A stretch of 64,000 nucleotides of DNA from Verrucomicrobiota bacterium (GTDB lineage: Bacteria; Verrucomicrobiota; Verrucomicrobiia; Limisphaerales; Palsa-1400). Each line of letters begins with the position of its first letter. Positions within the stretch are counted from its first letter, which is position 1. The notes beneath the pieces were generated by a model that did no database searches, was not told the DNA's origin, and worked only from the letters and a program-made list of their open reading frames with translations. Of the stretch, positions 51,362-64,000 are shown piece after piece. The DNA lies in assembly GCA_049510745.1 (NCBI GenBank), contig JBEKYR010000004.1:128001-192000 (forward strand). Reading direction: 5' to 3'. The translations under genes were made by a program, and so were the position numbers.

Positions 51362-52326
51362 ACCAAACCGTCATCAGTTTGTCCATGAACCTTGCGCCCA
51401 CGCCGACCTTTCCACCTGAAATGAGAATCGAACCTTTTCTCCCGTCGTCTCGCCGGAGCGCGCAGCGCGGCGCTTCCCAACTGCCGTCTTGTCCAACGGC
51501 CGCCCTCTGCTGTTCCGTTCTGGCTGCGATGGTTTTGACCGGATGCAGCCCAGCGACCGAGCCTTCACCAACCGCGGCCAGTTCCGTCGTGAAGACCAAG
51601 TGTGGCAGTGACATGGTCGCCATTCCCGCGGGCCAATTCACGATGGGGTCCAAAGAGGGGCCGATTGACGTGAAGCCGGAACACGTGGTCAGAATTGACG
51701 CGTTTCTCATGGATCAGCGGGAGATCACGCAGGCAGCTTATGAAGCGGTCACAGGCAGCAACCCCTCGCGGCGCAAAAATCCCAAGAACCCAGTCGAGCA
51801 AGTCACCTGGTCCGCCGCGGCGCGATTCTGCAATGCCCGGTCGCTGCAAGAGGGCCTGACGCCCTGCTATGACACGAACACCTGGGAGTGCGATTTTTCA
51901 GCCACTGGATACCGGCTGCCCACCGAAGCGGAATGGGAGTACGCGTGCCGCGCGGGCAGCACCACTCAATATTACTATGGCGATAATCCGGAGGAACTGA
52001 AATCCCATGCATGGTTCGAGGGCAACTCCGAAGGTCATCCGCATCCGGTTGCCCAGCGCAAGCCCAACGCCTGGAACCTCTTCGACATGGCCGGAAACGT
52101 GTGGGAATGGTGCAACGATTATTACGGCGCCAAGTACTATCGCCAAAGCCCCGCAGACAATCCCCATGGGCCGAAGGAAGGCGAAAAGCGCGTGCTCAGA
52201 GGCGGAGCCTGGTCCGCCAGCTCCGCCAATTGCACTTCCTGGGTGCGGAACTGTGACGAGGCTGGTTTGACCGACATCTGCCTGACCGGGGATTCCAACG
52301 GCTTCCGGTGCGTGCGCAAGAAGTGA
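51358..52326 (+). CDS. Formylglycine-generating-enzyme (SUMF1) domain lipoprotein
   Basis: LTGC lipobox, FTMGS, PVEQVTW, RLPTEAEWEYACRAG, DMAGNVWEW, RGGAW, GFRCV. Confidence 0.9.
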   Translation: MNQTVISLSMNLAPTPTFPPEMRIEPFLPSSRRSAQRGASQLPSCPTAALCCSVLAAMVLTGCSPATEPSPTAASSVVKTKCGSDMVAIPAGQFTMGSKEGPIDVKPEHVVRIDAFLMDQREITQAAYEAVTGSNPSRRKNPKNPVEQVTWSAAARFCNARSLQEGLTPCYDTNTWECDFSATGYRLPTEAEWEYACRAGSTTQYYYGDNPEELKSHAWFEGNSEGHPHPVAQRKPNAWNLFDMAGNVWEWCNDYYGAKYYRQSPADNPHGPKEGEKRVLRGGAWSASSANCTSWVRNCDEAGLTDICLTGDSNGFRCVRKK

Positions 52327-52625
52327 GCTTGGGATCGCTCGCCAGTGCGGTGACGTTTGGCGGGTGGTTTGGCGGCCGTATAGGCGCTTGCATGAATCGG
52401 CGGGTCATGGCCCAGAACATCGATAGATTTGTTGCGCCTTTCCGAGAGCGCGACAACGGTTCCTGGGAAAGCGAATACTGGGGCAAATGGTTCACCTCCG
52501 CAGCCTTCGGTTATCTTTATCAGCCCTCGGCGGAACACAAGGCCAAGATTGACCAGGCCGTGCGCGCCCTGCTTCAGACCCAGAGCCCGGACGGACAGAT
52601 CACACCCGGTGATCCTCGCGGATGA
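52327..52625 (+). pseudogene. Internal fragment of a GH127/GH146-like glycosidase
   Basis: GGWFGGRIGAC...RVMAQ...PF...WESEYWGKWFTSA...TQSPDG; no signal peptide, and the frame runs into the end of metV. Confidence 0.65.
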
Positions 52626-53268
52626 TTGTGCGGCAGCCGCCGGCCTGGCTGGAACGCCAGTTCTTGGGCGGTTTCGTCTTCTTGAGTTGGTCCAATTGAC
52701 CGATTTCCTTGAGACGCAGGTAGATGAGTTGCCAGGCACAAGGGCGGGCCGGGTCCACTTCGCAGTGGTCTTCACGGGAGCCGCTGCACGGGCCATTGAG
52801 CATGCGTTTGGCACAGCGGGTGACCGGGCAAATGCCGCCGTAGAGGTGGAGCACACAGGCGCCACACGCGCCACATTTTTCCGCCCAGACTCCGCGTTCC
52901 TCGAGGATGCCGATGAATGCGGTGTCCAAGCCGGCATAGACCGGTTTGCCGCTGTAACGCTCGGCCAGGGCCTGCACGCCGGCGCCGCAACCCAGGGACA
53001 AGACGGCGTCGTGGTTCTTGATGGCCTCGGCCGCTTGCTCGAGGAAGACGTTGTCGCACTGGCGTTCGATGGTGGCTTCATCGACTTCGAGGGGGAGGCC
53101 TTTGAGTTTTGCCGCCATGCGCAACGCGGAGGCGATGATGCTGACTTCGCGTTGTCCGCCGGCCAGGCAGACGGTGACGCAGGTGCCACAACCGAGCAAG
53201 AGCAGCTTTCGGTGTTTTTCCACTATGGCCAGCAGGTCAGGGATGTTCTTTCTTTGTGCAACGATCAT
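52600..53268 (-). CDS. metV: MetV-like (methylene-THF reductase C-terminal domain) Fe-S protein
   Basis: GCGTCVTVC, ERQC, GCGAG, CGACGAC...CPVTRCAK...NGPC...CEV...CAW. ATG 53268 overlaps the mvhD stop. Confidence 0.85.
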   Translation of the reverse strand: MIVAQRKNIPDLLAIVEKHRKLLLLGCGTCVTVCLAGGQREVSIIASALRMAAKLKGLPLEVDEATIERQCDNVFLEQAAEAIKNHDAVLSLGCGAGVQALAERYSGKPVYAGLDTAFIGILEERGVWAEKCGACGACVLHLYGGICPVTRCAKRMLNGPCSGSREDHCEVDPARPCAWQLIYLRLKEIGQLDQLKKTKPPKNWRSSQAGGCRTIIREDHRV

Positions 53269-53711
53269 GAGCAGTTCTCCGGTTTGGGCGAACCATCGGG
53301 TTTGATGGGGTTCGGGCCCAGTTTGCGAATGGTTTGGACCATGTCGGTAATCGTATCCGCCAGGGGCCGGGCCATGGCGGCGGAAATGTTGACCATGCGG
53401 ATGCGGTCCTTTTCGAGGCCGATTTCCAGCAGCAGGTCCCGGGTATAATTGACCCGGCGTTTGGCGCAAAGATTACCTTCGACAAAATGGCAGCCGCCTT
53501 CCAGGCAGCCGGCGACCAGCACGCCGTCCGCGCCGTGTTCCAATGCCTTCATGAAATACTCCGTTTCCAGCCGGCCGGTGCAGGGAGTGCGGATGATGCG
53601 CACATTGGGCGGGTACTGGATGCGCATCGAGCCGGCCAGGTCAGCGGAGGAATAGGCGCAGTAGTGGCAGCAAAAGGCCACAATCTTGGGTTGAAAGGCT
53701 TCGGCTTGCAT
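53265..53711 (-). CDS. mvhD: MvhD/FlpD [2Fe-2S] subunit
   Basis: FCCHYCAYSSADLAG, PCTGR, GADGVLVAGC...CHFVEGN. Confidence 0.95.
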   Translation of the reverse strand: MQAEAFQPKIVAFCCHYCAYSSADLAGSMRIQYPPNVRIIRTPCTGRLETEYFMKALEHGADGVLVAGCLEGGCHFVEGNLCAKRRVNYTRDLLLEIGLEKDRIRMVNISAAMARPLADTITDMVQTIRKLGPNPIKPDGSPKPENCS

Positions 53712-53714
53712 GGC

Positions 53715-56700
53715 TCAGACGGTTTCCACCAACTCCCTTTCCGGGTGGGCGGCAGTCAAAAGTTCGCCGTTCCGCTCCGGGAACAATTGCCGGATCATGA
53801 CCAGGAACTGGTCGGTTTCAAAGTGATGCAGTTGGATGGCGCGGGCGGGACACTCGGCGGCGCAGATGCCGCAGCCCATGCACTTGGCGGCCTCGATCTG
53901 GCCCTTGCCGTCCTTGTTGCAGAACGGCGCGGAATACGGGCAGACGGTGACGCAGGTCATGCAGGAGATGCATTTCTGCTGGCTGACATAACAGACCTGG
54001 GCGCTGACGTCGAGTTGCGTTTTGGAAAGGACGGTGGCGGCGCGGGCGGCGGCGGCGCGCGCCTGGGAAATGTTCTCGTCGATGAACTTGGGCGAATGGG
54101 CCAGCCCGCAAAGGAAGACGCCTTCGGTGGCGAAATCCACCGGCCGCAGCTTCATGTGGGCTTCCACATAAAATCCGTCGGCGTTCAGCGGCACCTTGAG
54201 CATGTCGGAAATGCGCTTGTTGTTCTTCAGGTCGCTTTCAATGCCGGTGCTGAGGACAACATTGTCAGCTTCGACCTGGAGCGGTTCGGGGAAGTCGGGG
54301 CTTTTCAGGCTGACGACCAGGCCCTGAGTATCGCGCACCTCGGGCGGCGCTTCAGGCGTATAGCGGATAAAGACGACACCGGCCCGGCGGGCTTGCTGGT
54401 AGTAGAGTTCACGGAAGCCGTAAGTCCTGACGTCGCGGTAGAGGACGAAGACGTTGGCGGCGGGATCTTGTTTCTTGATGGCCAATGCATTCTTGATGGC
54501 CATCGAGCAGCAAATACGGCTGCAGAAAGGATGCTGCTCGTTGCGCGAGCCGACACACTGGATCATGACGATATTTTGTCCCTTCGCGGGATAGGCTTTG
54601 TCGTGCAACAGTTTTTCCAGCTCAACCTGCGTCAAGACGCCTGCGGAGCGGCCATACAAGAACTCGGAGGTCCTGGCTTGGCGCGCGCCGGTGGCGACGA
54701 TGATGGCGCCACCGGACACTTCGAGTGGCTGGCCGCCCTTGACCAGCGACAGATGGAATTTGCCGACGTGGCCTTTGATGGCGGAGATTTCTGTTTCCAG
54801 ATACAGCTTGATGTGGGGATGCTTCTCGACTTGCCGGATAAGGGCGTTGGTAAACTGAGCGAGGTCCGCGTGCTCGAAGGTGCTGTGAATCTCGTGCAGG
54901 GTCCCTCCCAGACGATTCGTCTGTTCCACCAGATGCACCGGAAATCCCTGATTCGCCAGCGCCAGGGCCGCGGTCATGCCACTCAAGCCGCCGCCGATGA
55001 CCAAGCCCGTCTGGTCAACCTGCAGCGTCCCGCCTTCCAGCGGCGAGAGCATCCGCGCCCGGGCGATGGCCATGTTGACCAGTTCAACCGCCTTTTCCGT
55101 GGCGGATTGCGGCGCCGCGGAATGCACCCAGGAGCACTGGTCGCGGATGTTGGCCATCTCGAACAAATGGGGATTCAACCCCGCTTCGCGCAAGGTTTCA
55201 CGGAACAAAGGCTCGTGCGTTCGCGGGGTGCAGGAGGCCACCACGATACGATTGAGCCGATGCTCGCGGATCGCATCCTTGATGTTCGACAAGCTCGTAT
55301 CGGAACAGGTGAACATGGTATGAGTCGCCAACACGACGCCCGGCTGGTTCGCGACGCTTTTCGCGACTCGCTCGACATCTACGACGGAGCCGATGTTCAT
55401 GCCGCAGTGGCAGACAAAGACCCCCACTCGCGCTGCTTCATCGGCGACATCATGCTCGGTGGGGTAACTCTTTTTGGTGATCAGCGTATTGCGCGCGGGC
55501 GCCAGCAATTCCATTGCCATGGACGCCGCGGCGCTGGCTTGGGTCACCGTTTCGGGAATGTCCTTGGGCTCCTGGAAGGCGCCGCCGACGAAGACGCCCG
55601 GCCGGGAGGTCGATAAGGGGGCCAGGCGGTCGGTGTGGCAGAAGCCAAAGTCGTTCAGCTTGATGTCGAGGCTGGCCGCGCACTTGGCCATGGACTTCGG
55701 CGGTTCCATGCCGACGGACAGAACGATCAGGTCAAAATCCTGCTGTTGAAGCTGGCTGTTGCCATCCAGAAATTGAACGCGCAGGTCTTTGCTGCCGGGG
55801 ACCTGAACAATCCGCGAGGGAATGCTTTTGACGTAGTGGATGTTTTTCTGCGCCCTGGCGCGCTCATAGTACTGGTCAAAATCCTTGCCGTAGGCGCGGA
55901 TATCCATGTAGAAGATGGTCGCGTCCAGGCCTTCGACGTGATCGCCCGCCACCATGGCCTGTTTGGTCGCCATCATGCAGCAGATGGACGAGCAATAGTC
56001 ATTGCCACAAGCCGAATCCCGCGAACCGACGCATTGGATCCAGGCGATGCGCTGGGCTTTGCGGCCATCGGACAGCCGGATGACATGCCCTTCAAACGGC
56101 CCCGCGGCCGAGAGCATGCGCTCGAATTGAACACTGGTAACGACGTTGGGATGGCGGCCATAACCGAATTCGCCTTTTCGTTTGGCATCGAATTCACCAA
56201 AGCCCGGGGTCAGGATGACAGCGCCCACCTCGAGCGTAACGGTCCGCTCCTTCATCGCGTGGTCGATGGCGTGCTGTTGGCAAGTCTCGACGCACCGATT
56301 GCACTCCGAGCACAGGGCGCAGTTAAGACAACGCTCCGCCTCCGCCAACGCTTGCTCCTCGGTCAGCCCTTTTTCGACTTCGTCGAAATTCCCCAGCCGA
56401 TTGGCTGGCGGCAGTTCGGCGGCGTGGGGCCGGTCCTTCTTCGCGACTTTCCCGGCATCGGGCAGCAGCTCCTCCGGCATGGGGTTGACCGTGCTCTCAA
56501 AACGGGCAGCCAGCAGGTCCTTGCCGGTCAAATAGCGTTCGATGGATTCGGCGACCCGTTTGCCGGCCGCGACCGCATCGATCACCGACGCGGGACCCGA
56601 GGCATTGTCGCCGCCGGCGAAAACGCCGGGGATGGAGGTTTGCCCGGTGACGGGGTCGGCTTTGAAGCAGCCTCTTTCGCTATCAACCGGGATATGCCCG

Positions 56701-58211
56701 AGCAACTGCTCATCCACCATCTGGCCGATGGCCACAATGATTTGGTCGGCTTCCAGAGTGGCCAGGTCGTTTTCGTCAAAGGCGGGACTAAACCGTTTCC
56801 GATCGTCGAAGACCCGGAGGCACCGTTTGATCTCGAGGCCGGTCACGGAACCATTCCCCGTGATGCGCTTGGGGCCCCAGCCGTCGCGGATCGTAATGTT
56901 TTCGGCCAGCGTGGCCTCGATTTCTTCCTTGTAGGCGGGCATTTCATCGCGCCGTTCCAGGCAAACCATCTCGACCTTCCTGGCGCCGAGGCGCAGGGCG
57001 GTCCGGGCGACATCCACCGCCACATTGCCGCCGCCAATCACCAGGACCCGGTCTTTCACCACCGGCTTCCGGGCCGAAGCCGCGTCCCGGAGGAATTCGA
57101 CACCATGAAACACGCCGTTGATTTGTTCGCCTTCGATGCGGAGCTTGCGGCTTTTCTGGGCGCCGGCGGAAAGGAATATGGCCTGATAATCCTGCCGGAG
57201 CGATTGGAAGGTGATGTTCTCGCCGATGCGGCAGTTATAGACGAACTTGACGCCCTTGCGGCGGATCAGTTCGACTTCATGGTCCAAAATGTCCTTCGGC
57301 AGCCGGTACTCAGGAATCCCCCAGCGGAGCATGCCGCCGGCGGCGCCGAGCGCTTCAAACACGGTGACGGCAAAACCGGCATCGGCAAGGTCAGCCGCCG
57401 CGGTCAATCCGGCCGGGCCGCCGCCAATCACAGCGACCTTTTTGGCGTCCGGCGCGGGAGATTTTTCTTCCGGCAAAGCTAGTTTCCCCGCCGCCAGCAT
57501 TTCGATTTCCTGGTCGGACGCGAACCGTTTCAACAACCGGATGGCGATGGGATCATCGGCCTTGCCGCGGGTGCAAACGGATTCGCAGGGATGGGTGCAA
57601 ATCCGGCCGCAGATCGCGGAGAGGGGATTTCGCTGGCGAACAAGGTTGACTGCCTTGAGGTATTCCTTCTTCTTGATGAGCTGAACGTAGCCTTGGACGT
57701 TGACCCTGGCCGGGCACTTCACCTTGCAGGGCGCGTGGCCGTGTTTGAGGATGCCAAAGATGTTGGGCGTGGCCTGAGCGTAGAGCTTGGCGATTCCCTT
57801 GCGCGTGCCGAGGCAGCGGTTGAACTCGTCCGGTATATCGACGGGGCACGCTTGGGTGCATTCGCTGCAGCCGGTGCATTTATCCTCGTCAACAAATCGC
57901 GGAAACCGCCGGACGGTGGCTTGAAAATGCCCCGGATCACCCTTCAGGCCGGTCAATTCCGAGAGTGTCAGGATCTCGACGTTGAGATTCCGCGCGCATT
58001 CCACCAGTTTGGGCGAGACAATGCAGGTCGCGCAATCGCCCGTCGGGAAAGTCTTGTCCAGGTGGGCCATCATGCCGCCGATGGCGGCGTCGCGCTCGAC
58101 GAGATAGACCTTGAAGCCGCTGTTGGCCAGGTCCAGCGAGGCCTGCACGCCGGCGATGCCGCCGCCCTGCACCAGCACCGCGCCAATCTTCTTGTCGTCG
58201 GATTTGCTCAT
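53715..58211 (-). CDS. hdrA: Large HdrA-like flavoprotein (HdrL type) with GltD-like NAD(P)H oxidoreductase insert and a second HdrA unit
   Basis: GGGIAG, LDKTFPTGDC, CGRICTHPCE, GGGPAG, GGGNVA, QCVGSR twice, CHCGMNI, CTPRTHE, RDQCSWVH, C-terminal 2x[4Fe-4S]. Confidence 0.92.
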   Translation of the reverse strand: MSKSDDKKIGAVLVQGGGIAGVQASLDLANSGFKVYLVERDAAIGGMMAHLDKTFPTGDCATCIVSPKLVECARNLNVEILTLSELTGLKGDPGHFQATVRRFPRFVDEDKCTGCSECTQACPVDIPDEFNRCLGTRKGIAKLYAQATPNIFGILKHGHAPCKVKCPARVNVQGYVQLIKKKEYLKAVNLVRQRNPLSAICGRICTHPCESVCTRGKADDPIAIRLLKRFASDQEIEMLAAGKLALPEEKSPAPDAKKVAVIGGGPAGLTAAADLADAGFAVTVFEALGAAGGMLRWGIPEYRLPKDILDHEVELIRRKGVKFVYNCRIGENITFQSLRQDYQAIFLSAGAQKSRKLRIEGEQINGVFHGVEFLRDAASARKPVVKDRVLVIGGGNVAVDVARTALRLGARKVEMVCLERRDEMPAYKEEIEATLAENITIRDGWGPKRITGNGSVTGLEIKRCLRVFDDRKRFSPAFDENDLATLEADQIIVAIGQMVDEQLLGHIPVDSERGCFKADPVTGQTSIPGVFAGGDNASGPASVIDAVAAGKRVAESIERYLTGKDLLAARFESTVNPMPEELLPDAGKVAKKDRPHAAELPPANRLGNFDEVEKGLTEEQALAEAERCLNCALCSECNRCVETCQQHAIDHAMKERTVTLEVGAVILTPGFGEFDAKRKGEFGYGRHPNVVTSVQFERMLSAAGPFEGHVIRLSDGRKAQRIAWIQCVGSRDSACGNDYCSSICCMMATKQAMVAGDHVEGLDATIFYMDIRAYGKDFDQYYERARAQKNIHYVKSIPSRIVQVPGSKDLRVQFLDGNSQLQQQDFDLIVLSVGMEPPKSMAKCAASLDIKLNDFGFCHTDRLAPLSTSRPGVFVGGAFQEPKDIPETVTQASAAASMAMELLAPARNTLITKKSYPTEHDVADEAARVGVFVCHCGMNIGSVVDVERVAKSVANQPGVVLATHTMFTCSDTSLSNIKDAIREHRLNRIVVASCTPRTHEPLFRETLREAGLNPHLFEMANIRDQCSWVHSAAPQSATEKAVELVNMAIARARMLSPLEGGTLQVDQTGLVIGGGLSGMTAALALANQGFPVHLVEQTNRLGGTLHEIHSTFEHADLAQFTNALIRQVEKHPHIKLYLETEISAIKGHVGKFHLSLVKGGQPLEVSGGAIIVATGARQARTSEFLYGRSAGVLTQVELEKLLHDKAYPAKGQNIVMIQCVGSRNEQHPFCSRICCSMAIKNALAIKKQDPAANVFVLYRDVRTYGFRELYYQQARRAGVVFIRYTPEAPPEVRDTQGLVVSLKSPDFPEPLQVEADNVVLSTGIESDLKNNKRISDMLKVPLNADGFYVEAHMKLRPVDFATEGVFLCGLAHSPKFIDENISQARAAAARAATVLSKTQLDVSAQVCYVSQQKCISCMTCVTVCPYSAPFCNKDGKGQIEAAKCMGCGICAAECPARAIQLHHFETDQFLVMIRQLFPERNGELLTAAHPERELVETV

Positions 58212-58212
58212 A

Positions 58213-59082
58213 TCAGTTTGCCGCTGCCTTCTCCAAAACCGTTGAAGCGGGAACCATCAGCTTCTCGAACCCGAGCTCCTCGGGCGCCAGCCCCAGACCA
58301 AGCCCAACCAGTTGGGTGATGTACACGATGGGCAAGTGATAGTTCTTACCGGTCTGTTTGTTGATATCCTGTTGGCGCAAATCCAGGTTGACCTGGCACA
58401 TCGGGCAACTGACCGCGATGCAGTCGGCGCCCGCCTGGCAGGCCATGTCGAGAATCGAATCCGTGAGCTGGACCACCACATCCGTTCGTGAAAGCGACAA
58501 CCCGCCGCCGCAACATTCGACCTTGCACGGCCAGTCCAGGCTTTGGCCGCCCATCGCTTTTACCAGGCGGTCCAGCGAGGTCGGATTTTCCGGGTCGTCG
58601 AATTTCAAAATCCTGGGTGGCCGGACCAGCAGGCACCCGTAGTAACAAGCCACCTTGAGGTTCTTGAGCGGCTTCTTAATGGCGCGGGAGATGGCCTTCA
58701 GGCCCACGTCGTCCAGGAGCACTTCGAGGAAATGCCGCACGTGAACCGAGCCGTCGTAATCGCGCTCCAGCGCCTGGCTGACCTGCTCGCGCATGCCGCG
58801 ATGGGCGGTGATTTCGTGGTTGGCCACTTTCATGCGGCTGAAGCAGGCGGCGCAACTGACTACCATGTCCAGTTTGAGGTCCTGGACTTTGGCCAGATTG
58901 GCAGCGGGGAGCGAGACAGCCAGGAAGGGATCGGTCTGGTGGCCGGCGGTCGCGCCACAACAGGTCCAGCCTTCGGGTTCAACCAGTTCAATGCCCAGCG
59001 CGCGCGCCACCGCCAAGGTGGATTGGTACATGTCCCGGGCGGTGGATTCAGCCGAGCACCCTGGAAAATACGCGTACCTCAT
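58213..59082 (-). CDS. hdrB: Heterodisulfide reductase subunit B-like
   Basis: YFPGC, WTCCG, YYGCLL, ECCGG, CPMC (two CCG domains). Confidence 0.93.
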   Translation of the reverse strand: MRYAYFPGCSAESTARDMYQSTLAVARALGIELVEPEGWTCCGATAGHQTDPFLAVSLPAANLAKVQDLKLDMVVSCAACFSRMKVANHEITAHRGMREQVSQALERDYDGSVHVRHFLEVLLDDVGLKAISRAIKKPLKNLKVACYYGCLLVRPPRILKFDDPENPTSLDRLVKAMGGQSLDWPCKVECCGGGLSLSRTDVVVQLTDSILDMACQAGADCIAVSCPMCQVNLDLRQQDINKQTGKNYHLPIVYITQLVGLGLGLAPEELGFEKLMVPASTVLEKAAAN

Positions 59083-59645
59083 GCTTGGGGTCCTTTATTC
59101 TGTCTGGAGCGCTTGAAGATGCGACCCACGGTTTTCCGGTCGCCACCCCGGGAAGGCAGCAAAGAAATCTTCCGTTTCTTGAGCATGGCTGGAAACTTCT
59201 CCACATCGTTCCTCCATTTCCCCGTGCCCAGTTTGTAGGCGACGACCATCCCCATCTCATAGCTGCGGCCAAACATTTCGACCGTCTTCAGAAAAGCCCG
59301 GTTAAACAGCGGCACATTGCCGGCTGGCCTGGATGCGCCGCGTTGAAGGGCCAGCAGGCGCAAGGCGTCAATGACCGCGGCGACATCAATCCCCATCGGA
59401 CAGCGCGCCGAACAGATCTCGCACGAGGCGCAGGTCCAGATGAGATCGCTCTCCAAGAGCTCATTGCCGGCGCCCAGATGCAGTTGGCGCATCAGTTCCG
59501 ACGGCCGCGACTTGGTCAGCTTGGCCACCGAACAACCACTGGAGCATTTCTTGCACTGGAAGCAGACGCTCAGATCGACGCCGCAGATTTGTTCCACCGC
59601 GTCTTTCAAGCCGGATCCGGTTTTCTTTTTGATGATGGTCATCAC
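59079..59645 (-). CDS. hdrC: Heterodisulfide reductase subunit C-like
   Basis: CFQCKKCSSGC and WTCASCEICSARCP. Confidence 0.93.
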   Translation of the reverse strand: MMTIIKKKTGSGLKDAVEQICGVDLSVCFQCKKCSSGCSVAKLTKSRPSELMRQLHLGAGNELLESDLIWTCASCEICSARCPMGIDVAAVIDALRLLALQRGASRPAGNVPLFNRAFLKTVEMFGRSYEMGMVVAYKLGTGKWRNDVEKFPAMLKKRKISLLPSRGGDRKTVGRIFKRSRQNKGPQA

Positions 59646-59659
59646 GGGAGGTTCTCCGG

Positions 59660-62290
59660 TTACTTGGCGGCCACCTCTTCGAGGCCCGCTTCGGCATCGT
59701 CGGTATTCTGCTCAACCAGGGCAGTCACGCTGGCGGGAACGACCTTGCGATACACGGCGGCGGGTTCGCGCCTCCGTCCGTTTTCGGTCAAGAGGTGCTC
59801 GATGGTGATTCCGAACAGCCGCTGATTCTCCTCGAGCAGCGGCAGGATCAATTCCCAGTCGGCATTGGTCAATCGGGCAAACTTGCCGCCGTTTAACTGC
59901 TGCTCGACCAACGTTCGGTTCGGATCGCGGACGAAAATGGCGCCGCCGGAAGCCAGGGAGAATAGATTGCTGCCGGGATAAGGCTCCGGCAGCGGAACCA
60001 ATTGGCCGTCGTCATCGAACTTGACGCCATTCAAGATCACGAACCCGCCGCCGTTATGAGGGTCGCCCGCCATGAAAGACTCTGCCAGGTAATCCAGGCA
60101 CGTGCCATTGATGATGACTTTGGGCCGGCCGACGGAGTTGATGAGCGGACGGCCGGCGGCGTTGCCGAGCACATAGACAGAGCCGCCTTTGGCGCCATAC
60201 ATAAAGGTTTGGCCCACGTCGCCGTGAATGACCAGCTTGCCTTCCTTGATAATCTGGCCCAACTGGTCCTGCGCGTTTCCATGCACCGTAATCGTCAGCC
60301 CATCGATGCCGGAGGCCAAGTAGTCTCCACTGCTGCCATACACATCGATGGTCACCTCCTCCGTATTAGGCCCCAGCCCGCACCCGAGAAATCGCTGGCC
60401 GATACAATTGAAGCTGATGAAGTGCCGCCACCCCATCATGTAGGCCTCCACGAGCAGGGCCGCGTCACAATGGTCGCCTTCCGGTGGAAAATGCGCGGTG
60501 TCGATCACCAGCGTGGTTTCGTTCTCCTGCGGTTTGCGCAGGTGCTGGCGGGACTCGAAATCGATGAGGCGAAATGCGCTCTTGCCGGCGTCTCTTGAGC
60601 CGATGTTGGGAAGATGGCTGAACAACTGGTTCCACTCGTTATGAATAATGTGGAGCAGATGGCTGCGCTTTTTGGCGCCGGTTGAGTAAATCCGGTCGTT
60701 GAGCAGGGTGAAAACCTCAATCGCAGTGGCGGTTTTGGACGGATCTTTCGCCTGCTGCGTGATCTGACGGCACGCCAGGCGAAACTCATCAAAGGTCCAT
60801 TGCGGCAGACGCCCGCGCATCGTCTCAAAAATCTCCACGCTGTCGAGCTTGTCGAAGGACGCTGGCGCTCCCGGCGGCGGCAATTCCCGCGAAAAATCGC
60901 ACGATTCCGTTCCTCTGGGCATGGGGACCGGTTTGCCGAATTTGTCGGTGCATGTGATCCGCATCTTGCCGGCGGCATCCTTTTGCAAATTGAAAATAAA
61001 GGCCCCGCCATCGTTGTGACTGCCGCCGCGCGCGTTCCAGTACCGGTCCGCCACCGGGCAAATCCGTTCGTCGTCCTTCGACAAGCTTAACAGCGTGGCA
61101 TCGATCGCTTGTTTTTCCGAACAAATCAGGCCCACCTGCACCTTGCCGTCGCAGAAAGCAAACACCTGCGGCCGAAGCATGGCGGTGTCGGTGATGCCCA
61201 TCAACTGGAACTGCTTTTCCCGGGCGAGCGTGCGGGCGATGATGAAGAACCAGGGACCATCGGGCGACCCGTGCATATGCGTGGCCTGGATCGCCCGGTA
61301 GATCTTTCTTTTCTCCGGATCGAGACGGTCAAAGTCCAGTTCCGTCGTGGGCGCCAGCGCCTCGATGATATATTCCAGCGGATAGTGGTAGGTCCGGCTC
61401 AGCAAATCGAAGAGCAGGGCCGAGACTTCCGTGTCGGTGAGGAACTGGGGATAGATCTGACGCTGCTTGAGGTACTCGCTGACGGAATGGTAATTGGCAA
61501 AGTCGCCGTTATGCACCAGGGCCATGTCAATGGCCGCAAACGGATGGGCGCCGCCCGGGTGCCAGACACGGCCCTTGGTCGGGAAACGTTGGTGGGCAAT
61601 CCATTCGTACGCGCACAGGTCCTCAATCTGGTAGTACTTGACGATCGCTTCGGCGAACCCGACGACCTTGAGGATCATGATGTCCCGCCCATGCGAGAGC
61701 ACGAAGGCCCGTTTCTCCCCGAGCGACGCGTAGTATTTCTGATTCAGGCTGAAGCTGTTCTGGTTGACAAACTCGGCTTCCGCTTCCTCGCGGCCCAGCG
61801 CCTGCAGATGGTTGCGGGCGATGAACGCGTCCAACACCTTCGGTTTTGCGCGCACAAAATAGCGGCTGACCGCCGGTGGCATCACCTCCAGCCCCGGCAC
61901 GGACTTCCAGTCTTGGAGCTGGTCGAGTTGGCCGGTCGCGGCGATGTCGAAGTGCGGGGTGATGAACTGCGCCTCGATTTCGGGCCGCACCTTGGGGTCG
62001 ATGAACGCCAGGTGCAGCAGGTAATGGCTATCAAGGACTTCGCGGCTGACCCCAAGCTGCTCGGGGACCAACCCCACCGCGGCGATGCCGCCTCCCTTTC
62101 CATTGCCCCGGTTGTGCATCTGGCGGGACGGTTCATAGATATGCTTGCCCGGCACAGGCTCGCTGCAACAGAAACCCACGACCCCGCAGCCCCCTTCCTC
62201 GGCTTCCTTCTTCAGGCTCGAGGCGTGGTTGAGAGACTGGGCCAGCCGTCTTCTGGAATCGGTCAGGCGCTTTATCAATTGACCGTTCAT
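59660..62290 (-). CDS. Glutamate synthase amidotransferase + GXGXG domain fusion (GltB1/GltB3-like)
   Basis: EGGCGVVG N-terminal nucleophile, HQRFPT, AHPF, HNGD, TDTE, DGP, LRP; C-terminal beta-helix G-repeats (LAESFMAG). ATG 62290. Confidence 0.88.
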   Translation of the reverse strand: MNGQLIKRLTDSRRRLAQSLNHASSLKKEAEEGGCGVVGFCCSEPVPGKHIYEPSRQMHNRGNGKGGGIAAVGLVPEQLGVSREVLDSHYLLHLAFIDPKVRPEIEAQFITPHFDIAATGQLDQLQDWKSVPGLEVMPPAVSRYFVRAKPKVLDAFIARNHLQALGREEAEAEFVNQNSFSLNQKYYASLGEKRAFVLSHGRDIMILKVVGFAEAIVKYYQIEDLCAYEWIAHQRFPTKGRVWHPGGAHPFAAIDMALVHNGDFANYHSVSEYLKQRQIYPQFLTDTEVSALLFDLLSRTYHYPLEYIIEALAPTTELDFDRLDPEKRKIYRAIQATHMHGSPDGPWFFIIARTLAREKQFQLMGITDTAMLRPQVFAFCDGKVQVGLICSEKQAIDATLLSLSKDDERICPVADRYWNARGGSHNDGGAFIFNLQKDAAGKMRITCTDKFGKPVPMPRGTESCDFSRELPPPGAPASFDKLDSVEIFETMRGRLPQWTFDEFRLACRQITQQAKDPSKTATAIEVFTLLNDRIYSTGAKKRSHLLHIIHNEWNQLFSHLPNIGSRDAGKSAFRLIDFESRQHLRKPQENETTLVIDTAHFPPEGDHCDAALLVEAYMMGWRHFISFNCIGQRFLGCGLGPNTEEVTIDVYGSSGDYLASGIDGLTITVHGNAQDQLGQIIKEGKLVIHGDVGQTFMYGAKGGSVYVLGNAAGRPLINSVGRPKVIINGTCLDYLAESFMAGDPHNGGGFVILNGVKFDDDGQLVPLPEPYPGSNLFSLASGGAIFVRDPNRTLVEQQLNGGKFARLTNADWELILPLLEENQRLFGITIEHLLTENGRRREPAAVYRKVVPASVTALVEQNTDDAEAGLEEVAAK

Positions 62291-63855
62291 GAGGTTTTCG
62301 CCGCGTCGTTGGTGTAATCCAGGTGCATCATCAGGTCGGTGCGTCCGCGCAACTCGCTCACGCTGCGCAGGCCGAGGCGTTGCAGAATCGAGACGAGCAC
62401 GTTGCGCCAGGCGCTGTAAAGGTTGACCAGCCGCTGCGTGCCCCAATCGATCTGCATCTTCTCGGAAAGCTCGGGGTCGGTCGTGGCAATGCCGCGCGGA
62501 CAACCGCGTCCGCTCTCACATCGGCCGCACCGCACACAACCCAGCGCCACCAATTCCGCCGTGCCGATGACCGCTCCATCGGCGCCCAGGGCGATGGCCT
62601 TGGCCACATCGTAGGCCGAGCGAATGCCGCCGCTGGCAATCAGGACCACCTTGTCCCGGACCCCTTCATCGGCCAGAAAACGGTGGACCTTGCCAATGGC
62701 GTATTCGATGGGCATGGCGATGTTCTTCTTGGCGATGTCCGGCGCCGCGCCGGTCCCGCCGTAGCCGCCGTCAATGTGGACGATGTGAGTGCCCGCGGAG
62801 TAACTGCCCACCGCGACCATATCCACGTCCGTCGGGGTGGAGACCTTCGTCGAGATCAAGGCGCGCCGGTTCACGTGCTTGACCCAGTCGATGTGCTTCA
62901 TGTGGTCTTCGATGGAATAGACGCTGTGGAAGGGGAACGGGGAAAAGAGCGAGAAACCCACCACCGCCTCCCGCATCCGGGCCACACTGAGCGTCACCTT
63001 GTCGCCCAACAGGTGCCCGCCCAATCCTGGCTTGGCGCCCTGGGCGTACTTGAACTCCACAATCGGCACACGCTGGATGGTCTCTTCGCGCACGCCGAAC
63101 AGGCCCGTCGCCACCTGCGTAATGACATGGTCGTCATAGGGCCGCATCCGCTCCATGTAGCCGCCTTCGCCCGTGCAGGTGAAGGTATTGAACGCGACCG
63201 CCGCCCGCGCTTTGGACAACTGGGTGACATTGCTCACTGACCCGAAGGACATGCCGCCGCCATACCAAGGCACATCAATCGTGAGCTTGGGCCGGCCATC
63301 GTCGCGCTTATTGAGCAGGAGGCGGGTGTCGATTTGCTCCGGGCGCAGGGCTACAGGCGGTCGAGCGGGGAATTTGAAGCGGAGCCGGTCGAACCCTCCG
63401 CCGGAACGGCCGCACTCATAATCGTAGTCGTAGTCTGCCGGCGGCACGTCGCCGGTTTCCGCCATCCTCCAGGTCGCCAGGATCAGATCGCTCGACCAGC
63501 GACTATCGCCCAGGGCCTGGCACATCGGATTCTCCCGCACCTGCAGCGCTCCCTGGGGGCAAAGCGACACGCAATAGCGCCCGGTCTTCTCACAGGCCGG
63601 TCCGATGCACAAGTGATGGAGCGGCTCGCCGAAGTATTTGTAGCCGGGGTTGCGCACGTGGACCTGGAAGGAACAAACCTCCGCGCACTTCCCGCAACGC
63701 CGGCAATCCTGGCTGCGATGGACAATGTACTTGGCGATCTCATTGCGGTAGCGCGACGGCGCCGGGCGGGTCACTCGCTCGACTCGTTCCTGCGGTACGC
63801 GGGTCTTGAGCGTGTTCTCGGGCAGCAAGTCTTCAATGCTTCTTTCTGGTGCCAT
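62287..63855 (-). CDS. Glutamate synthase FMN-binding subunit (GltB2-like) with N-terminal ferredoxin
   Basis: CRRCGKCAEVC, MSFGS, TGEGG, QGAKPGLGGHL, DGGYGGTGAAP, SGGIR, CVRCGRCESGRGCP. ATG 63855. Confidence 0.92.
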   Translation of the reverse strand: MAPERSIEDLLPENTLKTRVPQERVERVTRPAPSRYRNEIAKYIVHRSQDCRRCGKCAEVCSFQVHVRNPGYKYFGEPLHHLCIGPACEKTGRYCVSLCPQGALQVRENPMCQALGDSRWSSDLILATWRMAETGDVPPADYDYDYECGRSGGGFDRLRFKFPARPPVALRPEQIDTRLLLNKRDDGRPKLTIDVPWYGGGMSFGSVSNVTQLSKARAAVAFNTFTCTGEGGYMERMRPYDDHVITQVATGLFGVREETIQRVPIVEFKYAQGAKPGLGGHLLGDKVTLSVARMREAVVGFSLFSPFPFHSVYSIEDHMKHIDWVKHVNRRALISTKVSTPTDVDMVAVGSYSAGTHIVHIDGGYGGTGAAPDIAKKNIAMPIEYAIGKVHRFLADEGVRDKVVLIASGGIRSAYDVAKAIALGADGAVIGTAELVALGCVRCGRCESGRGCPRGIATTDPELSEKMQIDWGTQRLVNLYSAWRNVLVSILQRLGLRSVSELRGRTDLMMHLDYTNDAAKTS

Positions 63856-64000
63856 AAAGCTTTCCGAACGTTTCCTCCTCAAGTTGCTCGAAGAACATGG
63901 CGCGGCCGACATCGCCGCGCAGCCGGCGCGCCTCGCGCATGCCCATGGCCCCCATCACCTCGATCAACTGGTCGTGCCAGGCGGCGATGAGATTCGTCAT
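63833..64000 (-). CDS. C-terminus of a second glutamate synthase-related (GltB2-like) protein (partial)
   Basis: My translation NLIAAWHDQLIEVMGAMGMREARRLRGDVGRAMFFEQLEEETFGKLYGTRKKH* parallels the neighbour's NLYSAWRNVLVSILQRLGLRSVSELRG. Confidence 0.7.
   Translation of the reverse strand: MTNLIAAWHDQLIEVMGAMGMREARRLRGDVGRAMFFEQLEEETFGKLYGTRKKH

Follow-up and report, generated by a model that had tools for sequence, protein, structure and literature searches.

A conserved ten-gene operon that joins a split glutamate synthase to Hdr-, Mvh- and Met-type electron-transfer genes

We analyzed a stretch of 64,000 bp from the genome of a Verrucomicrobiota bacterium (GCA_049510745.1), in the following called the window, which corresponds to G000:C4:128001-192000 of this host genome (G000). 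At its right end lies the greater part of an operon of ten genes on the minus strand, in the order mvhD' - metF* - gltB2x - gltB2 - gltB1/3 - hdrC - hdrB - hdrL - mvhD - metV. Glutamate synthase is the enzyme by which nitrogen is brought into amino acids. The ten gene products likely work together as one NADH-fed glutamate synthase that is wired through parts of the Hdr, Mvh and Met type, a prediction to which we give a probability of about 0.62. The head of the operon is located beyond the window edge and was read from the segment L001 (G000:C4:190001-210000); it comprises a second gene of the mvhD type, a homologue of metF and the remaining part of gltB2x. The genes are as follows, with window coordinates unless L001 is named and protein lengths in amino acids (aa).

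L001 4945-4142, minus strand: mvhD', second MvhD-like [2Fe-2S] adaptor, 267 aa (PF02662, E 8e-24)
L001 4145-3243, minus strand: metF*, protein with the fold of methylenetetrahydrofolate reductase (MTHFR), 300 aa (PF02219)
L001 3230-1833, minus strand: gltB2x, whole gene, 465 aa (PF01645, E 3e-13); its 3' end is 63833..64000 of the window
62287..63855, minus strand: gltB2, ferredoxin domain and flavin mononucleotide (FMN)/Fe-S synthase barrel, 522 aa (PF01645, E 2e-90)
59660..62290, minus strand: gltB1/3, class II (N-terminal nucleophile, Ntn) amidotransferase and GXGXG beta-helix, 876 aa (PF13522, PF01493)
59079..59645, minus strand: hdrC, 188 aa, two CxxCxxCxxxC motifs
58213..59082, minus strand: hdrB, 289 aa, two CCG domains (PF02754)
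53715..58211, minus strand: hdrL, Moorella-type HdrA, 1498 aa
53265..53711, minus strand: mvhD, 148 aa (PF02662, E 2e-48)
52600..53268, minus strand: metV, 222 aa (PF12225, E 4e-36)

The junctions between the ten genes are, in order, -4, +12, -23, -4, +14, -4, +1, +3 and -4 bp. A preliminary description of this DNA had listed eight of the genes, and all eight were found at their place on the minus strand with the families as named. The overlaps or gaps of at most 14 bp that it reported hold for six junctions (-4, +14, -4, +1, +3 and -4 bp); if gltB2 is taken to start at the ATG at 63855, its overlap with gltB2x amounts to 23 bp, a little more than claimed. The GltD-like module that it saw in the HdrA chain is present, as residues ~155-630 of HdrL match GltD/NfnB-like families, and the operon contains no GltD gene.

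Two scans with GltB1/3 yielded 135 distinct loci after 14 repeats on the same contig had been dropped. These loci are the best matches of the query, so that close relatives are favoured, and their phyla are taken from the record titles. All ten genes occur in the order of the window in 64/135 loci; a circular permutation, gltB1/3-hdrC-hdrB-hdrL-mvhD-metV-mvhD'-metF*-gltB2x, was found in 10/135, and its tenth gene was confirmed downstream in L006 (extended), L212 and L213. Most of the remaining loci are cut by a contig edge, and a few are forms without Hdr. The cassette is distributed over eight phyla: Verrucomicrobiota, Planctomycetota, Bacteroidota, Ignavibacteriota, Spirochaetota, Thermodesulfobacteriota, Chloroflexota and Latescibacterota. 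A metagenome-assembled genome titled Desulfosudis oleivorans (L132) is among the carriers. In 112 of the 123 loci that extend 700 bp or more past gltB1/3, the next gene is hdrC, which argues that the linkage of glt and hdr genes, described beforehand from the window alone, is not chance and extends to other genomes. The nearest relatives carry a GltB1/3 that is 91-94% identical and come from records titled Verrucomicrobiota, Limisphaerales and Terracidiphilus. Pairwise distances of seven genes in 59 loci are correlated with r 0.79-0.96, as expected for a block that moved whole; for GltB1/3 and HdrL r is 0.93, a value for which shared descent alone suffices. The most conserved of the seven genes is metV, with a mean identity of 77% and the NGPC motif in 88/88 copies. 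In a genome sample of the taxonomic order to which the host belongs, 4 of 151 genomes match, its own genome counted, and we estimate that about 1800 stored stretches match the GltB1/3 patterns. An apparent GltB1/3-HdrC fusion in L068 was rejected, because its linker is without the conserved GltB3 end and reads as a frameshift.

By every sequence test that we ran, the glt genes of the operon are those of a split glutamate synthase, and its core looks catalytically intact. Alignment of GltB2 with the Azospirillum enzyme (1ea0/2vdc) revealed that K937, R957, E978, K999 and T1030, numbered by counting from the 2vdc alignment, are all kept. The motifs of K937 and E978 are present in 89/89 copies. 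The five residues are taken to be functional ones; a search of the literature for their roles gave no source. The Cys1, HQR and HNG motifs of GltB1/3 were found in all 111 full-length copies, with a propeptide before Cys1; Cys1 and the HNG oxyanion motif presumably act as in other Ntn amidotransferases. The Fe-S cysteines after the GltB2 barrel and the GXGXG domain are present, with a four-cysteine cluster motif instead of three cysteines, and GltB2 resembles true synthases rather than the MgsC-like protein found in L173.

The additional subunit GltB2x consists of a 2x[4Fe-4S] ferredoxin domain and a degenerate FMN barrel without the 2-oxoglutarate-binding loop. The substrate-loop motif GAKPG occurs in 0/94 copies, and the two ferredoxin motifs are kept. 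The best fold match of the GltB2x model (mean predicted local distance difference test score, pLDDT, 76.8, low in the ferredoxin part) is the FMN domain of GltB, residues 760-1161 (Z 22.6, root mean square deviation (rmsd) 6.9, 321 aligned residues). GltB2x and GltB2 form one fused protein in L096 and L097 and, within the wider family described below, in several more loci. The central domain of the fused bacterial enzyme was not found in the operon. A gene for it is not annotated in the split-type cluster L174 either, so its absence lowers membership in the fused type only. GltB2x was considered as an orthologue of this domain and rejected, because it matches PF01645 and the FMN domain and not PF04898; we infer at most a role analogous to it. 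Another protein with a partial PF01645 match, of 525-600 aa (L064 2805-4604), recurs near both types of cassette, with relatives in L034, L047, L058, L066, L178, L181, L184, L188, L196 and L197.

HdrL contains the flavin-binding half of HdrA twice, and a GltD/NfnB-like NAD(H) module lies within its first ferredoxin domain. Aligned to the HdrA of 5odc, E697 and K750 take the positions of E356 and K409 in 47/47 copies; in the second half E1199 is found in 44/47 and K1240 in 45/47. HdrB has the ten cysteines of two non-cubane cluster sites in 60/60 copies. Scored by alignment column, the nucleotide site of HdrL reads xLE in 42/47 and YRR in 5/47. The YRR motif has been tied to NADP(H) (PMC7596348; papers given here and below by number were accessible in part, and statements resting on them refer to these parts), and its absence from 42/47 copies leads us to predict NADH as the donor. 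Outside the cassette, HdrLs are only 47-52% identical to that of the host. The HdrA of Moorella (1487 aa) has the same layout with a GltD insert (PMC9430772). The insert therefore likely came with the module, and it does not serve as a mark of dedication to glutamate synthase.

The preliminary description had regarded electron bifurcation as established for HdrABC-MvhD modules. For hdrCBA-mvhD-metVF complexes it is not established in the published accounts that we could consult: for the Moorella complex bifurcation could not be demonstrated and ferredoxin was not reduced (PMC8578096), and for the Sporomusa complex co-reduction was not seen (PMC9430772). Ferredoxin had also been named as a coupled product. 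The NAD(H) module, inserted at 5odc positions 288-291, interrupts the domain to which ferredoxin binds in the methanogen enzyme, and NAD(H) would take the place of ferredoxin there; the domain is otherwise present. This speaks against such a product, which we consider improbable. Calculated from redox potentials, bifurcation from NADH to ferredoxin would yield -3 to -25 kJ and confurcation of NADH and thiol electrons -40 to -95 kJ, so that both are allowed and neither is needed. That the HdrA flavin bifurcates or confurcates at all is predicted with the odds somewhat against it.

The fold of MetF* corresponds to that of MTHFR (1v93; Z 29.9, rmsd 2.7, 275 aligned residues), and automatic annotation labels it a methylene-tetrahydrofolate (THF) reductase. 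In this enzyme family Asp120 is invariant and catalytically essential, and Asp120 and Gln183 are the pterin anchors (PMC9900621). In the host protein the equivalent of Glu28 is kept; Asp120 is replaced by Tyr109 and Gln183 by His189. The Asp120 column holds Tyr, His, Phe or Thr in 87/87 copies and Asp in none; an SGD/TGD pattern in 15/87 copies is a match elsewhere in the protein. Acetyl-CoA synthase (PF03598) was found in 1/5 carrier genomes and not in the genome of the host, which is 94% complete; formyl-THF synthetase was found in 3/5. Owing to the loss of Asp120 and to the lack of acetyl-CoA synthase in most carriers, the Hdr-Met module with MetF* is probably not a folate reductase. Judged by this residue, the operon falls outside the Hdr-type methylene-THF reductases. 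A quick tree of 35 MetFs unites the ten-gene copies in a single clade (SH-like approximate likelihood ratio test, SH-aLRT, 100), which is nested among Asp-bearing MetFs and is sister to the MetFs of loci with HdrA only (95).

The first gene of the operon may provide the link to the synthase. The four cysteines of MvhD' are invariant (59/59). In a three-chain model MvhD' docked onto the ferredoxin domain at the N terminus of GltB2x with a score of 0.74 compared to 0.01 for the best control, the docking mark being one that was reached by 116/157 solved pairs and 2/215 mismatched pairs. The runs shared at least 88% of the contacts, and the pLDDT of the partners was at least 78. The MvhD' of the host and of close Verrucomicrobiota relatives carries an N-terminal extension of ~120 aa that is absent elsewhere.

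On the basis of these data we propose the following route. GltB1/3 would free ammonia from glutamine, and GltB2 would reduce the imine of 2-oxoglutarate at its FMN. GltB2x would act as a non-catalytic partner and Fe-S wire on which MvhD' is predicted to dock. Electrons of NADH would enter at the GltD-like insert of HdrL and pass over the HdrA flavin to MvhD, then to MetV, where MetF* would serve either as a scaffold or as a flavin relay, and on to MvhD'. HdrCB would be another entry point, with a thiol/disulfide couple as its most plausible partner. At the HdrA flavin, electrons of NADH and of the thiol could then be merged (confurcation) or split, a prediction graded above. DsrC was considered as the thiol partner and not retained, being present in 1/5 carriers. 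A more specific version, which we regard as doubtful, predicts a bifurcating or confurcating glutamate synthase of ten subunits, derived from an acetogen-type Hdr-Met complex by closing of the folate site and rewiring of the MvhD arm to nitrogen assimilation.

Of the 93 loci for which 3 kb or more of flank could be read, 27 are flanked by nitrogen genes, compared to 0.9% of random 8-kb windows of the host's own genome; the loci are kin and not independent. The flanking genes comprise gltBD, amt, PII, glnA, gdh, nrpR and the recurring partial PF01645 protein. Elsewhere in its genome the host carries canonical gltB-gltD (C1) and metF (C3) genes and a further hdrCBA-mvhD set (C33). G001 is a complete chromosome of 3.3 Mb; its sole full-length synthase barrel is that of the cassette, which is located 2 kb from the sole glutamine synthetase match. 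Synthetases that adjoin cassettes score as type I GlnA, and GmaS was above the cut-off in 0/5 carriers. Proteins beside the cassette with a shared unlabelled N-terminal domain and either a phosphoenolpyruvate-synthetase-like domain (PF01326) or a GAF/sigma-54 activator domain (L074 20153-22583, L111 833-3154 and relatives) form one similarity cluster of 20 loci.

The core is more widespread than the cassette. In an even sample of 201 genomes from the phylum of G001, GltB2x occurs in 60, only 3 of them at the identity typical of the ten-gene form. Forty of the 60 loci, chosen mainly for the room around the gene, were fetched: 2 are ten-gene loci and 38 divergent. These 40 contain an MvhD-like gene in 35, MetV in 27, MetF in 24 and nitrogen genes in 18 cases. 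An HdrA of 931-1020 aa was found in 5/38 divergent loci, without the NAD(H) insert in L185, the one checked. In L194 and L195 the order is mvhD-metV-metF-mvhD'-gltB2x. The Asp120 position of 26 synthase-linked MetFs outside the ten-gene clade, including four from the earlier GltB1/3 scan, reads Asp in 21 and Glu in 1; 4 could not be read by pattern. HdrC and HdrB are restricted to the 2 ten-gene loci, which suggests that Hdr is one of several plug-in electron inputs. A tree of GltB2 agrees weakly with the MetF tree. These data fit a core synthase with exchangeable electron inputs whose folate site was lost later, where we infer the order of events. In at least 4 loci of the wider family a gene for an oxidase linked to flavin adenine dinucleotide (FAD) replaces the adaptor. 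A GlcD-like FAD oxidase with an Fe-S domain precedes the core in L096 4669-9630, L097 2392-7381 and L200-L203, which have no MvhD adaptor; these loci possibly encode a glutamate synthase fed by 2-hydroxyacids.

Four other explanations have to be weighed. MetF* could still turn over folate or another pterin, so that oxidation of methyl-THF feeds the synthase, a mode that relatives with Asp and without Hdr may use, and HdrL passes part of the electrons to NAD+. This is consistent with the acid kept by the MetFs outside the ten-gene clade, with Glu28 and the flavin-side motifs of MetF* itself and with a methyl-THF to synthase couple that is downhill by 14-27 kJ; but Asp120 is replaced in every ten-gene copy, Gln183 varies, formyl-THF synthetase is limited to three of the carriers and the host has a separate canonical MetF, which makes a folate-fed synthase rather improbable. 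Slightly less probable is a redox valve or catabolic enzyme that dumps NADH or thiol electrons into glutamate, or oxidises glutamate in reverse. The canonical GltB of most carriers, which is sometimes adjacent, the glutamate dehydrogenase flanking some loci and the contigs of four metatranscriptomes that span the operon would suit it. The glutaminase site, however, is invariant in 111/111 copies and points to amination, and amt, PII, glnA and nrpR as neighbours point to nitrogen limitation; in G001 the cassette encodes the sole full synthase, which also speaks against this reading.

It would also be conceivable that two separate enzymes are merely co-transcribed, an Hdr-type oxidoreductase with its own substrate and a split synthase fed by free ferredoxin. 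We judge this unlikely in view of the interleaved gene order that survives circular permutation, the MvhD-type adaptor predicted on GltB2x and a MetF* without evident folate role. The least probable of the four is a GltB-like core with a different amide or oxo acid as substrate, as in an N-methylglutamate synthase. MgsABC is likewise a three-part GltB homologue (PMC6237917), and GltB1/3 is divergent, with an amidotransferase Pfam E of only 5e-6; but GltB2 carries the E978 synthase-type loop and the Fe-S cysteines, both missing from the MgsC-like protein of L173, and neither the GmaS search nor the type of the adjoining synthetases fits N-methylglutamate formation.

The proposal of the preliminary description that the Hdr module may serve the glutamate synthase is thus strengthened on several sides: the module travels and diverges with the glt genes, the residues of the synthase are intact, nitrogen genes are neighbours and the rival electron sink MetF* is without a folate anchor. 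Its general form is weakened by the wider family, where the core occurs without HdrCB in 38/40 loci. Further observations weigh against a joint NADH-fed complex. In L014 an hdrL of 90% identity lies on a different contig from the core. The ten-gene clade is weakly supported in the GltB2 tree (83/74), which contains one badly cut outgroup row. MetF* has Glu28 in 49/49 copies and Gln183 in about half, and may therefore still have some substrate. By energetics, NADH reduces 2-oxoglutarate/glutamine easily without bifurcation, and a partner for a thiol port was not found, with DsrC in 1/5 carriers. The canonical GltB in 4/5 carriers tested leaves the need for a second synthase unexplained. The docking model covers one link only, MvhD'-GltB2x. 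The contact of MvhD with the ferredoxin domain of HdrA is a solved one, and the docking pass may come from likeness to it.

The surroundings of the operon suggest mobility. An intact tRNA-Lys(CTT) is located at G000:C4:124991-125067, and a 45-bp direct repeat of its 3' end, 93% identical, at 195086-195130 (L001 5086-5130), 140 bp upstream of the operon and 70 kb from the intact gene, so that the pair brackets the whole window. The 70 kb in between are a candidate for an old island; no integrase (PF00589) was found in this interval, and its GC content shows no difference. Among relatives, an intact tRNA gene lies within 1.5 kb upstream in 16/75 and downstream in 2/59 (background 1.7%), and the upstream tRNAs represent nine amino acids in all. 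Loci with a tRNA upstream of mvhD' are L016, L018, L020, L022-L025, L027-L029, L031, L037, L038, L044, L140 and L142. The cassette has likely been inserted repeatedly at tRNA genes. A search of plasmids gave 13 weak records, none covering 80%. At the other end of the operon, window 52308-52625 (plus strand) contains a short GH127-like fragment (Pfam E 0.003) that ends under the stop codon of metV and looks like a gene cut when the operon arrived. Upstream of the operon, two tandem copies of a 17-bp direct repeat are found at L001 5254-5289 (minus strand), and L001 5250-5395 has an 84% copy on C25; this region is possibly a regulator site or the remnant of a mobile element. Contigs C73-C75 of the host assembly carry dense tRNA arrays with over 20 genes, among them one that has a TTA anticodon, as is typical when a bin contains a phage or mobile element.

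Sigma-54 promoter matches in L001 did not exceed chance, numbering 26 compared to 28.8 expected, and were 2/86 in upstream regions against a background of 1.1%. An NrpR box was found in 0/86 upstream regions, a shared upstream palindrome was not seen among eight patterns, and the minus strand yielded no sigma-70 site. Contigs from four metatranscriptome runs of three studies cover the span of the operon, cover the flanks little and bridge several junctions; they are mostly 90-99% alike, thus from relatives, and may include DNA. At the hdrC/gltB1-3 junction, the contig pieces inspected reach no more than 25 letters into hdrC. We take this coverage as a hint only that the operon is transcribed.

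Comparison with known systems shows where the operon departs from them. The HdrCBA-MvhD-MetVF of Moorella thermoacetica and Sporomusa ovata (PMC9430772, PMC8578096, PMC8515935) has the same six gene types, and E696/K750 and E1204/K1246 of Moorella HdrA correspond to E697/K750 and E1199/K1240 of the host HdrL (PMC9430772). In the present operon, in contrast, MetF is without Asp120, metV does not stand next to metF, a three-gene synthase and a further MvhD are included, and the carriers are mostly without acetyl-CoA synthase. With the GltBD of Azospirillum brasilense (1ea0, 2vdc, 6s6s) and the split archaeal-type GltB1/B2/B3 (L174) it shares the Cys1 amidotransferase, the residues of the FMN barrel and GXGXG. 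It differs from them by the fusion of GltB1 with GltB3, the missing central domain, the degenerate barrel GltB2x with Fe-S clusters of its own, the four-cysteine motif and the lack of a GltD gene, electrons likely arriving via an MvhD-type adaptor. The methanogen HdrABC-MvhAGD (5odc) has in common with it the E356/K409 flavin signature, the ten HdrB cysteines, HdrC and MvhD; here, however, the operon contains no hydrogenase, HdrA is doubled in one chain and its ferredoxin domain is interrupted by the NAD(H) module. In Desulfobacterium autotrophicum HdrL is likewise an HdrA fused to a GltD-like NADH module and followed by mvhD, but hdrL/hdrA are near dsr and fdh genes and not gltB (PMC2702500). 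MgsABC (PMC6237917, L173) is without the E978 loop and the Fe-S cysteines and adjoins gmaS, neither of which holds here.

A literature search, which covered neither subscription reviews nor supplements, gave no description of the ten-gene cluster. In their accessible parts, hdr-metVF joined to gltB is not mentioned in PMC6085437, bioRxiv 2021.09.25.461819, PMC5736913, PMC2702500, PMC8515935, PMC9900621, PMC7596348, PMC6405883, PMC8578096, PMC7325909, PMC11338639, PMC6237917 or PMC9430772. The operon is conserved and apparently undescribed.

Known glutamate synthases obtain their electrons from NAD(P)H via GltD, from ferredoxin or, putatively, from F420. An F420-type glutamate synthase is named in the accessible part of a preprint on anaerobic methanotrophic archaea (ANME). 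The family described here is common and points to a further route, an MvhD-type adaptor that takes exchangeable donor modules. If the doubtful ten-subunit version were true, the complex would form glutamate while merging NADH and thiol electrons, or while splitting those of NADH towards a carrier of low potential. Ammonia assimilation would then have its first bifurcating enzyme, and the ten-gene form would be the last stage of a series of inputs that can be traced from the adaptor alone through MetVF with Asp and HdrA-MvhD-MetVF to the full HdrCBL with MetF*. The ten-gene form would provide an Hdr-type complex that is soluble and whose final reaction is simple to assay, and could open electron routing of the Moorella type to testing. 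Because MetF* is annotated automatically as methylene-THF reductase, matches to hdr-mvhD-metV-metF in genomes from peat and sediment may be misread as acetogenesis.

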